Positions 55 through 46,582 of a stretch of DNA of 64,000 nt are shown piece after piece. Source of the DNA: Candidatus Versatilivorator sp. (GTDB lineage Bacteria > Acidobacteriota > Terriglobia > Versatilivoradales > Versatilivoraceae); NCBI GenBank assembly GCA_965207735.1, contig OZ242296.1, positions 1,792,001 through 1,856,000 on the forward strand, in the 5' to 3' direction. The notes beneath the pieces were generated by a model. The model was not told where the DNA came from. It did no database searches and was given only the letters and a program-made list of their open reading frames with translations. The translations under genes and the position numbers were made by a program. Numbering within the stretch: the first letter of the stretch is position 1; every line of letters starts with the position of its first letter.

Positions 55-1460
55 GACCCTTTTGAAGGAAAAAGCCCGAATCTGATGGCCGGATGGCCAG
101 CGGTCGCCGGACGCAGGCACAGCTTACCCTCTCCCGGCCTTGAGGCGGGCGAACCTGCTGTGCGGTTGGGGGTGGCAACCCGGTCTTCAGAGCGTCAGGC
201 GCATCAACTGATCCACCGTCAGGGCCAGAATGCCGAACATCAGGTGGCACCTCACCTTGTCGGGGCCGCGAACCCTCACCTGCCTCCCGCCAAACTCCTC
301 CTTGAGCCGTCCGTTGACCCGCTCCACCGTCGAGCGTTCCCGGTAGCGCCGCGCCTCGGGAGTCACTTGGCCGATACAGCGCCGGGCCAGTGCCTCCCGC
401 TTCCGCTCGGCTTTCAAGGTAGCTCTTCGGCGGGGGTTGACGTCAATAATCGGCACATGCCCCAGCTTCTCACTGAAGGCCCGGATCTCCGGCGCATCGT
501 AGGCGCTGTCCATCAAGTCGTAGAGACTCTCGACCCGCCTTGCCGTCAGCGTCGCCAGCGGAATGGCTGCCTGAGAGTCATGCACCGAGGCCGAGGTCAG
601 CAGACAACTGACCGGAATCCCGCCGTCAATGGCGTCGAGGTGTAGCTTGTAGCCGGTCCAGCTCTCCTGATGCCCCTTGGCGTTGCGCTTGACGCCGATG
701 TCGCAGGCCTTGGGCAACTCCTTCAACATTTCCTCCAGCGTCATCGACCCCTGCCGCTCCAGCCGGCTCAACCGCTTGGGCCGTCGCTCGCCCTTCGGCG
801 GCCGGCCCCGCCGGCGTTTCCGCTTGGCCTCCGGCGCAGCCTTGGCCGCTGGCTTTTCCCGTCCCGCAATCGCCGTCGAGTCCCTCGACACATGCCCCGC
901 CAAGTGGCCCTTCAGCGTCTCCTCCAGCAATGCCTCGTGCAAACGCCCCGGCAGGTCGCTCTCAGCGAATTCCGCAAAGGCCCGCGAGAAGGTCGACTCG
1001 CTCGGTACCTCCCACGCCCTCTCCCAGCCGCACAGCCGCCGCAGCCTCCCCTCACTCCTCAGCCGCTCCACCAATCCCCGCGTGGTCGCCACCTCCAGCA
1101 TCGACTTCGCCAGATAGGCTCGCGCCAGCACTGCCCGATCCTCCAGCGGCCGGCCACGCCAGCCCCGACTGTAAGGCAGCAACTCCTCCACCCGCACCAA
1201 CTCCAATACCTGCACCAGCCGCTGGTAACGCTCTCCCAGAGGCCCCAAAACTTCCTCCAGCAGGGGAAACAGCTCTCGTTGAAACCGGAACCAGTGTCGT
1301 GATAGGGTTTCCCTAAGGGGCAAGTTCCACCTCCGTTCATCATGTGGTTCAGACACCTTCATGATACAACAGACAGTGGTCTTGCCCCTCCTTCCACCTG
1401 CCCTCCTTGATCTTTCCCCACGTGAAAATTCCCGCTATCTGCGAATTTTGCAAAAGGCTC
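55..1460 (-). mobile_element. Insertion sequence (IS1182/IS5-like DDE element)
   Basis: Contains a transposase ORF. Imperfect terminal IRs: GACCCTTTTGAA (55-66) and the reverse complement of the right end, GAGCCTTTTGCA (ends at 1460). The left boundary is uncertain. Confidence 0.6.
187..1362 (-). CDS. DDE transposase (IS1182/IS5-like)
   Basis: Motifs SRDSTAI, GYKLHLD, LMDSAYD, YRERSTVERVNGRLK; N-terminal CGW...PSESTFSR. Confidence 0.9.
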   Translation of the reverse strand: MKVSEPHDERRWNLPLRETLSRHWFRFQRELFPLLEEVLGPLGERYQRLVQVLELVRVEELLPYSRGWRGRPLEDRAVLARAYLAKSMLEVATTRGLVERLRSEGRLRRLCGWERAWEVPSESTFSRAFAEFAESDLPGRLHEALLEETLKGHLAGHVSRDSTAIAGREKPAAKAAPEAKRKRRRGRPPKGERRPKRLSRLERQGSMTLEEMLKELPKACDIGVKRNAKGHQESWTGYKLHLDAIDGGIPVSCLLTSASVHDSQAAIPLATLTARRVESLYDLMDSAYDAPEIRAFSEKLGHVPIIDVNPRRRATLKAERKREALARRCIGQVTPEARRYRERSTVERVNGRLKEEFGGRQVRVRGPDKVRCHLMFGILALTVDQLMRLTL

Positions 1461-1996
1461 GATTTCCAATTGTTTCACTCTATGTATGATCCGCCCGGCA
1501 GGGCGGGGGCCTCGCTTACCTGTAACAACGCCTGGGTTCGAATGAAGGGGAACCGATTGAGGGGTATTCTACAACGGGCACAGAGTTACACCCTACAATT
1601 CCCAGCGTCTGGTCTCGGTGCCGAGCATGAGTCAACCGCTGATTTAACTGCATAATTAACATGGATGGACAGGATATACAGGATTTCTAATTGATGGGTC
1701 TGCACAGAATGCTCCGGGACTAAAGTTCTCTCCCCCCTCGAGTGCGACCGTTACCATTTCTTCAACAAGGATTCCAAAACCCGTTCCCATGGCCATGGAT
1801 CACCTCGAACGAGCACCCGATCATCGAGCGAGTCCGCTTCCTGCGCAACAGCTTCTCATTCTGTTTATCCTGTCCATCCTGTATATCCATGTTCAATAAG
1901 TAGAAAACCAGTTCAACGGGACATTGTCCTTTTCCCGAAAGGCCATGGACCTCCGTTGTTTCACCCTCGAATGATCCGCCCCGTCGTGGGGGGGCG
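1461..1996. repeat. Composite intergenic repeat array 1 (two GTTTCA-hairpin sites around a GxxExxY-derived shell)
   Basis: GTTTCA(C/T)CT...TGATCCGCC-loop-GGGCG sites at 1472 and 1958; inverted-repeat shell at 1658-1893. Confidence 0.8.
1762..1890 (-). pseudogene. 5' remnant of a GxxExxY-family gene
   Basis: MDIQDGQDKQNEKLLRRKRTRSMIGCSFEVIHGHGNGF resembles the GxxExxY N-terminus (LT..IIG.AFEV..ELG.GF), followed by a stop. Confidence 0.6.
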
Positions 1997-2116
1997 AGCC
2001 ATAACTCAATTGTAAAGAACTCCATCCGCCTCCGCCAGAAAACCAGGCCAACCTCCTGTTCGCCCTGGTCCTGGTGGCGATGTACTGGAGCACGTAGAAA
2101 GGGTTGCGCGGCAGCG

Positions 2117-6131: not shown

Positions 6132-6151
6132 CCCCCGCCGGGCAACCGGCA

Positions 6152-6325
6152 CCTGCCCTGCTGGGCGGATTATTCGAGAGTGCAACAATTGGAATCGACC
6201 ATTCCTTCGCGAGCTTGGTATCCCCTCGCGGTTAACCTCGACGCATTAGTGCCCCTTCGTCGTTCTTCGTACCCCTTCGTGGATCACTCTTTTTCTTTTG
6301 TCTTTTTTCGTTTGTTTCAGGTAAG
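6152..6325 (-). repeat. Inverted copy of the ~182-bp repeat unit
   Basis: Reverse complement aligns by eye to 10565-10746. Confidence 0.85.
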
Positions 6326-10469: not shown

Positions 10470-10564
10470 GGTGGAACCCAGGGAAACCGTTGTCGTCTGA
10501 AGCCATATTATCCGAGGGATTCGGCAGCCGGTCAAGAGCCCGGATTGGGGACGACCGGAAAGCG

Positions 10565-11525
10565 TGCCTGAAACAAACGAAAAAAGACAAAAGAAAAAGA
10601 CTTATCCACGAAGGGACACGAAGAACGACGAAGGGGCACTAAGGCGCTGAGGTTGGCCGCGACGGGGTACCAAGGTCGCGAAGGGATGGTCGATTTCAGA
10701 TTGTTTCACTCTCGAATGATCCGCACGGCAGGGCGGGGGCCCGGCTTGCCTGAAACAACCGAAAAACGACAAAAGACAAAGAAAAAGACTTATCCACGAA
10801 GGGGCACGAAGAACGACGAAGGGCCACTAAGGCGCTGAGGTTAACCGCGACGGGGTACCAAGGTCGCGAAAGGATTGTCGATTTCTGATTGTTTCACTCT
10901 CGAAAAGGGGGGTCAACGAAGGACACAAGGGACAAAGAGGATTTGTCCGCGAAGAAGCAACAAGGACCGCGGCGGAGCCAGTGGGGGGGCTTCCGACCCC
11001 ATCGTGATTTAAAGAGATCATTAACATCGATGCACGGGATTCACAGGATTCTTCAGGAAATGGCTGGCTTCTAATGCCGGGAATCCGCAAGTCCGCACCG
11101 GATCTTCGCCCGAGTTGGCTTCTGGTGCAGGAAGCTCTCGTCCTGTTAATCCTGTGCATCCATGTTCAATTCTTAGTCCTTCTCGATTGATCTTCCCCGT
11201 GGCGGGCCTTGGCCGTGCCCAACGCCCCGATTCCCAGTCAGCGTCCCGTGCAGCGGCCTCTGGTCCTATTAATCCTGTCTTTTTCCAAAACGCAAACAGC
11301 TGGCTGTTTCTCCTCTGAATGATCCGCACGGCAGGGCGGGGGCCCGGCTTGCCTGAATCAACCGACAAGAGACAAAAGAAAAAGACATTTCCACGAAGGG
11401 ACACGAAGAACAACGAAGGGACACTAAGGCGCTGAGGTTGACCGCGACGGGGTGCCAAGGTCGCGAAGGGTTGATCGATTTCTGATAGTTTCACTCTCGT
11501 ATGATCCGCACGACAGGGCGGGGGC
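10565..11525. repeat. Composite repeat array 2: three tandem ~182-bp units plus a ~400-bp insert
   Basis: Units start at 10565, 10747 and 11350; GTTTC sites at 10703, 10891, 11306 and 11488; shell at 11023-11166. Confidence 0.9.
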
Positions 11526-11616
11526 GACACTTGTTAGCAATTGATAATCCCCGGGCGACTCATTGAGCCGCGAAGCGGCGGCAGCAGGTAGCCGTGGGCG
11601 TGAGCCCATGGAAAGG

Positions 11617-24141: not shown

Positions 24142-24268
24142 GAGGTCATTGGAGCGGGCTTGGGGCACAGACAGACTCCCAGGAGCAAGCAGGGATCATA
24201 GAGTAAATGGGTGGATAAATAAAGAAGGCCGGCGAGGATCGCCGCAGTCGATCGCGGCAAAAAATACT

Positions 24269-25020
24269 TGCCTGAAACAAACGACAAGAGACAAAAGAAA
24301 AAGACTTATCCACGAAGGGGCACGAAGAACGACGAAGGGACACTAAGGCGCTGAGGTTAACCGCGACGGGGTGCCAAGGTCACAAAGGGATTATCGATTT
24401 CTGATTGTTTGACTCTCGAATGATCTGCACGGCAGGACAGGGGCCGGCTTGCCTCAAACAGACGAAAAAAGACAAAAGACAAAGAGTTATCCACGAAGAG
24501 ACACGAAGAACGGCGAAGGGCCACTAAGGCGCTGAGGTTTACCGCGACGGCATACCAAGGTCACAACGGGATGGTCGATTTCTGGTTGTTTCACTCTCGT
24601 ATGATCCGCCCGGTACGGCGGCGGCCGGACTCGCGGACAAAACGGGAGTTTTCCAAAAGGCGCCCGTCGGCTTTCAGAGAATTCGCCCCCCCGGATACCC
24701 TCCATCGCACCATCGGGACGCCCGCGCTCCCGGGTGGCATTCTCCCCTGACGCCGTGACACCAACGTCACAATATTGCAGAAGCGCCCGGGCGCCGCTCG
24801 TCATTGACCGAGCTCCATCCCTATTCGTCCCCATTCGTGTTCATTGGTGGTTCGTCTTCATTTCCAAAACCAAAACGGCTGGCTGTTTATCCTGTCTATC
24901 CTGTGCATCCATGTTCAATCAGTAGAAAACCGGTTTTGCACGACAGTGCCCTTGTTCCCGATAGGACATGAAGATGCGTTGTTTCACTCTCGTATGATCC
25001 GCCCGTCGTGGGGGGCGGGA
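24269..25020. repeat. Composite repeat array 3: two tandem units plus an insert with a half shell
   Basis: Units at 24269 and 24450; sites at 24407, 24588 and 24981; 24883-25018 aligns with 1861-1996. Confidence 0.85.
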
Positions 25021-25153
25021 CTTGTCCCCAAGAACCGGCGCCCGTGCGGTCACACCCGATGCCATCGTGATATGGTAGGAGCGGACGGCGTCCGACGACG
25101 ATCAGTTCCACCATCGATTCCAGCCGGTCACATCCAAAAGAACCCCAGGAGCC

Positions 25154-45919: not shown

Positions 45920-45989
45920 ACCCTGTATGCTCCGGCCCGTTGTATGGGGCGGAGGCGCTGCTGAGCAGGTACCGATACGGGATTGGTTG

Positions 45990-46357
45990 GGGCAGGTCTG
46001 TAAGCCGAATTCTGTTCCCTCGAAGAGGGCAGCGGTCATTCCTCTAGCCCGGGAGTTGCCTCCCGGATCCAGCATTCTACCCGGATGTCAAGCGGCGCGG
46101 GTCACGCCTCCATCCCTATTTGAACTTGCTCCATGTGGGGTTTGCCAAGCATGCCCGTTGCCGAGCACCCGGTGCGCTCTTACCACACCATTTCACCCTT
46201 ACCCCTTGCGGGGCGGTATATTTTCTGTTGCACTTTCCGTACCCATGGAGAACCTCCATGAGCCCCCCGCGTTACGGGGCACACTGCCCTGTGGAGTTCG
46301 GACTTTCCTCCCGCTCAATGCCTGAGCAATGAGCCGGCGACCGCTCACAACCTGCCC
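45990..46357 (-). ncRNA. rnpB: RNase P RNA (type A)
   Basis: Minus strand has GAGGAAAGTCCGAACTCC, AGTGCAACAGAAA, GGTAAGGGTGAAA, GGTAAGAGC, AAACCC, ACAGAATTCGGCTTA; P1 pairing GGGCAGG/CCTGCCC. Confidence 0.97.
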
Positions 46358-46397
46358 GACGGCATTTTAGCCCGCATTTCTCGCCAGGTCGCTTATT

Positions 46398-46582
46398 TGA
46401 AACAAAAGAAAAAAGAAAAAGAAAAAAAGAGTTGTCCACGAAGGGACACGAAGAACGACGAAGGGGCACTAAGGCGCTGAGGTTGACCGCGACGGGGTAT
46501 CGAGTTCGCGAAGGGATGGTCGATTTCTGATTGTTTCACTCTATGTATGATCCGCACACCAGGGCGGGGGCCCGGCTTGCCA
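46398..46582 (+). repeat. Single ~182-bp repeat unit upstream of rnpB
   Basis: Aligns with 10565-10746. Confidence 0.9.

Follow-up and report, generated by a model that had tools for sequence, protein, structure and literature searches.

The window is the whole 64,000-nucleotide stretch of DNA analysed here, positions 1792001-1856000 of a complete 5.26-Mb genome (G000:C1). Transposases that are 93% identical belong to records titled Candidatus Versatilivorator sp. (Acidobacteriota). An array of four units, all on the forward strand, occupies 10563 to 11529. Unit 1 (10563..10744) is a 182-bp module, referred to below as module A, which appears to be a non-autonomous IS110 derivative. Its short end (10563-10578) has CGTG in place of the CTTG that is read in a relative (L002). 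Unit 2 (10745..10903) is a module A that keeps only 14 nt of its hairpin end, with a probable deletion junction at 10903/10904. Unit 3 (10904..11347) is a 5'-truncated composite with the relic of an internal inverted repeat at about 11021-11170 and a complete hairpin end at 11305-11347. Unit 4 (11348..11529) is again a 182-bp module A, and is followed by CTTGTTA at 11530. From its sequence, with two mismatches to the guide described below, CTTGTTA is probably the original target of the array. A separate palindromic repeat, an Acido-Lenti-1 Rfam match on the minus strand (11566..11611), adjoins the array and lies outside the IS110 units.

Related units are found elsewhere in the window. A hairpin end is followed by a composite unit that runs from 1515 to the hairpin end at 1957 (1469..1999, plus strand), and a lone diverged module A unit is found on the minus strand (6148..6325). 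A further array (24267..25022, plus strand) contains module A units at 24267 and 24448 and a composite stretch to the hairpin end at 24980. Finally, a lone module A unit on the plus strand (46392..46575) is followed by the target-like CTTGCCA at 46576; RNase P RNA lies directly before this unit, at 45985-46358 on the minus strand. The window opens with a copy of a DDE transposase (187-1362, minus strand), and between 47588 and 63141 an integrase, a primase-helicase and VirB3, VirB4, TrbI, TrbL and VirB8 genes form an integrative conjugative element. About 30 integrases similar to that of the latter are found in the genome.

The initial annotation listed a repeated site in whole or in part at 1472, 1958, 6186 (minus strand), 10703, 11306-11313, 11488, 24407, 24588, 24981 and 46533, all of which hold, and at 10891, where only the first 14 nt are kept. 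It also described a TGTTTC..GAA duplication flanking 10904-11304; the sequence is present, but it is not a target-site duplication. The module start at 10904 has 16 matches in all, and as the 15 others have no truncated end ahead of them, 10904 is best read as a deletion junction. The GxxExxY remnants suggested for the modules of the window were not recovered: 1765-1908 (minus strand) gave no NCBIfam match at E<=10 and no tblastn match below E 0.47. The motif there presumably resembles the GxxExxY family by eye only. C-terminal pieces of GxxExxY proteins do sit within three longer units outside the window, at 1369459, 2810285 and 4746671.

The site itself had been described as a single 54-nt unit. 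The repeat is real, but it combines the last part of one element with the first part of the following one, the two meeting at a CT core, as judged from sequence, conservation and guide matches. At 10702..10757 (plus strand) this junction comprises, in order, the subterminal repeat TGTTTCA (10702-10708), the guide-matched GAATGAT (10714-10720), a hairpin (10721-10736), a free spacer, the CT core (10745-10746) within the guide-matched CTTGCCT (10745-10751), and the repeat TGAAACA (10751-10757). A unit therefore reads CT-TGYC-TGAAACA ... TGTTTCA-5 nt-GAATGAT-hairpin-GGGC-NNNN. The hairpin is missing upstream of 116 of the 225 anchored starts, and conservation of 1.2-1.6 bits falls to <=0.34 bits immediately 5' of CTTG. 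In addition, 70 hairpin ends lack a canonical start after them, and even there four variable bases are followed by CT at a constant distance (66 and 62 of 70). Together these three observations identify the 54-mer as a unit end plus the start of the next unit. The stem is kept while the loop varies, as had been noted, with compensatory CCGCCC/GGGCGG and CTGCCC/GGGCAG versions.

A scan with a profile of the 54-nt site, the check that the initial annotation had proposed, gave 341 matches genome-wide in 214 clusters. Neighbouring matches no more than 1 kb apart share the same orientation in 126 of 127 cases, and the spacing between neighbours peaks at 170-190 and at 50-60 nt. The 14-mer end has 201 exact genomic copies, against none for the reversed control and 0.03 predicted from base composition. 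Among the 31 genomes searched this end is restricted to the genus, being found in 12 of 13 congeners and in none of the 17 other genomes. The site matches no Rfam family, and a pattern search of viral contigs gave no match. A 5-nt CTTGY duplication precedes 14 of the 201 short ends in G000 and is absent in some relatives, which suggests that a second CT is used occasionally.

There are 166 end-to-end units in the genome: 105 of module A, 24 composites, 18 minimal units of about 60 bp, 8 module A copies with another element inside, 1 other, and 10 with a long ORF. Module A appears to host repeated landings, as near-identical elements with ORFs of 392, 453 and 456 aa are found inside it (G000 units 4450233, 4679138, 3823402(-), 105757; 409274, 4519442, 1239242(-), 1408393(-); 2736515(-)). 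The N-terminus of the 392-aa protein resembles the DDE transposase region of the window, and we take the 453-aa and 456-aa ORFs to resemble a group II intron reverse transcriptase and an IS1380 transposase.

The ten long-ORF units (about 1.68 kb) encode a protein of 465-477 aa on the strand opposite the CT core. They are intact IS110 elements with the same two ends as the gene-less units, so that copies of the site do occur beside an intact recombinase gene, a setting that the initial annotation had suggested looking for. The protein matches PF01548 (E 2e-23), PF02371 (E 9e-12) and NF033542 (215 bits, cut-off 140), and all ten PF01548 matches in the genome are to these elements. On the strength of these profile matches the recombinase is assigned to the IS110 DEDD type, with D41, E89, D126, D129 and S361 as the presumed motif residues by position. 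The HUH/REP-type transposase proposed in the initial annotation is thus not supported. Close homologues of the transposase occur in 5 of the 13 congeners. Two genomes in which the transposase query found no transposase, G009 and G011, have 193 and 40 unit ends, and may hold arrays that have outlasted their enzyme. A sequence search of the PDB with the transposase gave no matches, and a single-sequence AlphaFold model was unusable (pLDDT 37).

The 60-, 182- and 340-840-bp modules are likely to be non-autonomous derivatives of the 1.68-kb elements, to judge from their shared ends; a blastn similarity search of the module A interior against the IS110 element gave 0 matches. As in MITEPpu9-like elements, the window modules have both ends of an autonomous IS110 element around non-coding DNA, are dispersed, and are present or absent among relatives. 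In the orientation of the transposase the core is AG, the left end is long and contains the hairpin, and the right end is 16 nt. Members of the IS110 group carry their RNA in a long left non-coding end, while IS1111 elements have a long right end and subterminal repeats of 7-17 bp. Here the putative bridge RNA lies upstream of the gene, an IS110-group trait, yet a subterminal repeat of 7-9 bp is also present.

The 5' region upstream of the transposase has a conserved structure with two internal loops in a consensus fold of 29 sequences, with double-sided changes in 17 of the 37 predicted pairs. The fold of the single sequence is not significant (z 0.75). In L013 the 3' strands of the two loops lie at 1976-1982 and 1913-1919 (minus strand). 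The first, the target guide, agrees with the target flank at 133 of 145 variable letters, where the null value is 64.6. The second, the donor guide, agrees with the element's own end at 139 of 140 (null 105.6), with cross-controls between the two at the null level. These counts are for the 30 of 43 elements kept after dereplication at 90%, with one copy per high-copy family; in the IS110 locus collection the anchor is absent in 40 of 152 loci. The target guide shows 45 concordant double changes over 29 independent pairs on the protein tree, in a test run without L218, L266 and L273. The elements thus combine a predicted two-loop RNA with guides that covary with target and donor, as expected of IS110. 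In the CT orientation the two 3' strands correspond to the guides that the IS621 scheme terms right target and right donor, as far as this is laid out in the available part of its description (PMC11208160). In 26 of 29 cases the base that follows the target guide is identical to the donor base adjoining the core, and might act as a handshake guide. For a left target guide, the 5' strand of the target loop was compared with the other flank, and matched 55 of 189 letters (null 46.3, p 0.07).

In this lineage both guides read AGRCAAG. Guides that lie within one mismatch of each other are found in 7 of 58 loci, 6 of which belong to this clade. A subfamily of IS110 in the relatives, 79-80% identical (L153-L161), has the target guide AGGTCAG, which aims at the CAGTGGT-type short tandem repeats flanking its copies.

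Comparison with relatives provides filled and empty versions of the same loci. The gap that holds the 10.5-11.6 kb array is 1120 nt here and 58-59 nt in three relatives, whilst in G002 it is 1355 nt, with different units that have the same start point; this comparison parsed 5 of 12 loci. Polymorphisms were compared for outer ends only, against 1.6 Mb of G002; unique orthologous flanks were found for 41 of 183 and 39 of 52 outer ends, and 15 gave a rejoin. Ten of these 15 resolved polymorphisms between G000 and G002 begin and end exactly at the CT core (1673, 161, 166, 182, 382, 142, 142, 141, 141 and 909 bp), and the other five show no clean rejoin at the core. The exact cases include a whole 1673-bp IS and a 161-bp unit in a site without a prior element end. 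Nine of the ten exact insertions are at the end of a unit already in place, and the other is in a naive CTTGCCT site. Two cases, those of 182 and 382 bp, could represent unit loss or duplication instead of insertion. Insertion takes place at the 2-nt core without a longer target duplication, as in IS110. The junctions are therefore fixed rather than scattered, as is also seen in the onset of conservation, and the precise occupied and empty loci bear out the expectation of the initial annotation in 10 of 15 resolved cases. The 141-142-bp module of G002 (L018, L020, L021) resembles by eye the last codons of the transposase gene. Unlike module A, it seems to have arisen from the IS by internal deletion.

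The arrays are very probably head-to-tail runs of gene-less units that are moved in trans by the IS110 recombinase with a self-targeting predicted bridge RNA, as argued from sequence comparison. In the proposed mechanism the recombinase would excise or copy the unit between two CT cores, as a circle. The target loop would read only 7 nt (CTTGYCT), all to one side of the core, leaving the other side unconstrained. As CTTGYCT also starts every unit, new units would insert at existing ones, chiefly at the outer end, and since the target guide matches the units' own end each inserted unit would re-create the landing site. All ten IS copies sit on an existing unit end, as do all 14 copies of the 141-142-bp module in the 1.6 Mb of G002. 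By contrast, in a sister family whose target guide is unlike its own end, 36 of 40 copies are at guide-matched sites and 2 of 40 at an own end. The near-identical guides here, together with this contrast, make self-targeting the likely cause of the arrays. Some factor besides the 7-mer favours unit ends: of the 1459 CTTGYCT sites in the genome only 218 lie at a unit end, yet all 24 recent insertions went to ends, so that the 7-nt guide alone cannot account for the preference. In 24 arrays the units located at the free end are younger by a small margin only (p 0.02-0.05), a trend weaker than strict polarity.

A full-length circle joint was not found in the assembled contigs of sequencing runs, where contigs only were searched, from 8 of 24 runs. 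Contigs from RNA libraries hold related IS110 pieces, although presence there does not demonstrate transcription. One such contig (run X15) joins L013:1359, an internal CT of the transposase gene, to 437 at the short end, with a depth of 7.7 and 47 letters on the short side. It is possible that this joint represents a partial circle or a one-sided duplication.

The donor side differs from the expected arrangement. Four guides of the IS621 type, matched to both strands adjoining the core, were not found: the 5' strand of the donor loop (L013 1951-1957) matches the core-adjacent DNA at only 24 of 196 letters. Instead, this strand matches a segment beyond the hairpin at 152 of 168 letters (null 125.5; slid controls 14-37 of 196), in a position test run without L248 and L285. 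Across 58 loci the displaced match covers 319 of 348 letters, on the same strand and 27-45 nt from the core, and in 58 of 58 a hairpin lies between the core and the displaced segment. The displaced guide shows 10 concordant double changes against 1-2 in controls (29 independent pairs, Fisher p 7e-12). Two of the controls also give p 0.003-0.004, from shared divergence, with 1-2 concordant changes. Both donor guides are complementary to one and the same DNA strand. Of the 58 loci, 42 have the segment at a distance of 5 nt from the inverted repeat and 55 have it at 4-6 nt, a register that places the segment opposite the core if the strand folds back.

We therefore lean towards a reading in which the donor is recognized as a fold-back single strand, on the evidence of these sequence matches. 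The donor junction would fold back on one strand into an outer TGTTTCA/TGAAACA stem, an unpaired bubble and an inner hairpin, and the two donor guides would pair with the two sides of the bubble, which would mimic the melted strands of a duplex. Such pairing would account for the free variation of the hairpin loop and of the 4 nt next to the core. In other IS110 elements copy-out of the top strand only has been described (10.64898/2026.08.31.748434; 10.1101/2025.10.25.684509), at least in the parts of these reports available, and this makes fold-back more plausible. Predicted DNA folds of four junctions are modest (z -2.3, -2.0, -0.6 and +0.3). In that of the 10702..10757 junction (z -2.3) the outer stem forms. 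At 10700 the fold of lowest energy has the core side paired and the bubble closed, which counts against fold-back, as does the persistence of ISPpu9 circles despite mutation of the A-box palindrome, reported in the available text of PMC12288879. There is no bias in replication strand (103 vs 98, p 0.78), although a mechanism using single-stranded DNA of the lagging strand might show one.

It is possible, though rather less probable, that the same IS110 element and its miniature units use a donor that is ordinary duplex DNA read by one guide, as a half-match, and that the displaced match serves RNA folding or antisense regulation like that of Asr9/Ssr9. The absent strand bias and the modest fold energies agree with a duplex donor. 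From what is available of the two sources, half-match recombination has been reported for IS621 (10.64898/2026.08.31.748434), and ISPpu9 has antisense RNAs and a palindrome that is dispensable for circles (PMC12288879). However, the match occupies the loop strand expected of a left donor guide and changes in step with the DNA segment, and the distance of that segment from the inverted repeat is that of the fold-back register. A different origin of the arrays would be tandem duplication in place from one donor arm ('LD-only' expansion) rather than incoming units. Tandem non-coding units have been described beside IS110 transposases (n=468, in the available part of 10.64898/2026.08.14.744561), and the 5-nt duplication at 14 of 201 ends and two tandem IS copies in one relative would agree with such growth. 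Yet module A copies that lie side by side resemble each other no more closely than copies paired at random (median identity 0.903 in both cases; 3 of 37 are nearest neighbours), which indicates that the arrays are assembled from incoming units and largely refutes duplication in place for module A. Furthermore, modules of different types occur in the arrays together with whole IS copies, and with 214 clusters and 10 IS most clusters lack a transposase in their vicinity, so that in-place duplication is improbable as the general origin of the arrays.

A REPIN-like module moved by an HUH enzyme (RAYT or IS91-type), or an integron-like cassette moved by a tyrosine recombinase, would be in keeping with the hairpin adjoining a CT dinucleotide and with the one Y1 gene and 39 tyrosine recombinase matches in the genome. 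Such an origin is very unlikely, as the Y1 gene has different repeats of its own and no site within 20 kb, while the ends in question bound ten intact IS110 genes and the guides covary with those ends. REP or REPIN sequences with a RAYT or TIRYT were rejected since the sole Y1/RAYT-type gene is flanked by unrelated repeats (cf. PMC3733652, as far as available). This gene (G000:C1:2227208-2227438) sits in a palindromic repeat array of its own, and the same repeat family is found inside some composite units. Rolling-circle transposition of the IS91/Helitron kind, prompted by the hairpin and CTTG, was superseded by the IS110 partner, and PF04986 (IS91-type) has no match in the genome or in any control genome. 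The idea in the initial annotation that modules are added at a defined site by a recombinase in trans is borne out by junctions fixed at the CT core and by units that come from elsewhere. The annotation was therefore right about the repeat and about recombination at a fixed site in trans, but not about the enzyme class, the site as a single unit or GxxExxY in the window modules.

Several hundred intergenic repeats with no previous explanation can thus be viewed as the footprint of a single enzyme. They also offer a naturally occurring example of a guide aimed at the donor end of its own element, which the current IS110 model assumes does not arise, and the 60-bp minimal units would be the smallest donor. 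If correct, fold-back would be a second donor geometry for bridge recombinases and would bear on whether the intermediates of IS110 are single-stranded. Taking both parts together, we marginally favour a picture in which a widespread IS110 clade uses one 7-nt target guide and recognizes its donor in the form of a folded single strand, in the manner of an RNA-guided attC site. In this sponge-associated lineage the guide would have drifted onto the element's own end, so that about 60 bp of ends suffice for arrays that extend themselves and stack any DNA between those ends. The miniature elements by themselves are a larger-scale example of a described phenomenon. IS110 bridge recombination, the miniature derivative of ISPpu9 and tandem growth at IS110 ends (10.64898/2026.08.14.744561, in its available part) are already known. 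Neither a fold-back donor nor a self-matching target guide was found in the IS110 literature searched, on which preprint supplements may bear; the deviant bridge RNA models in Fig. S12 of 10.64898/2026.10.21.760802, of which part was available, may include this clade, and the available part of another preprint describes a target stem-loop for ISPpu10 (10.64898/2026.03.19.712850).

The initial annotation did not recognise the system, but its kind is partly known already from ISPpu9/MITEPpu9 of Pseudomonas putida KT2440 (PMC12288879). In the available part of that paper, ISPpu9 is an IS110-group element with an AG core in the orientation of the transposase. Its 43-bp hairpin-bearing left box (AG, 8 nt, hairpin, AAACA end) and 16-bp right box have the A/B box layout seen here. 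MITEPpu9 (the ssr9 module) is similarly gene-less with the same boxes, moves in trans and is sometimes in tandem. ISPpu9 differs in that its targets are REP sequences and its 8 miniature copies are all of a single type, whereas the target guide here corresponds to the end of the element itself and there are about 150 complete units, with cargo of several types, in arrays that reach 8 sites. Neither guide mapping nor a fold-back donor features in that part of the paper. IS621 shares PF01548 and PF02371, an upstream structured RNA with two loops, the CT core and covarying guides, but its guides pair with both duplex strands beside the core (PMC11208160; PMC13626964, in their available parts). 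Here a left target guide was not detected, the match of the left donor guide lies 27-45 nt from the core on the same strand, and the transposase lies opposite the CT-core strand. Expanded IS110 loci with tandem non-coding units are alike in their stepwise growth at the ends and in one-sided donor matches at the boundaries; in the model proposed for them, as given in the available part of the report, insertion regenerates no target and duplication in place is favoured beside the transposase (10.64898/2026.08.14.744561). In the arrays described here, by contrast, the target is regenerated and the units are incoming. Integrons also build cassette arrays, at attC sites, using a tyrosine integrase, no guide RNA and cassettes that bear genes. 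The likeness that we propose, by analogy, is that both systems would combine arrays with a recombination site that is read as a folded single strand.
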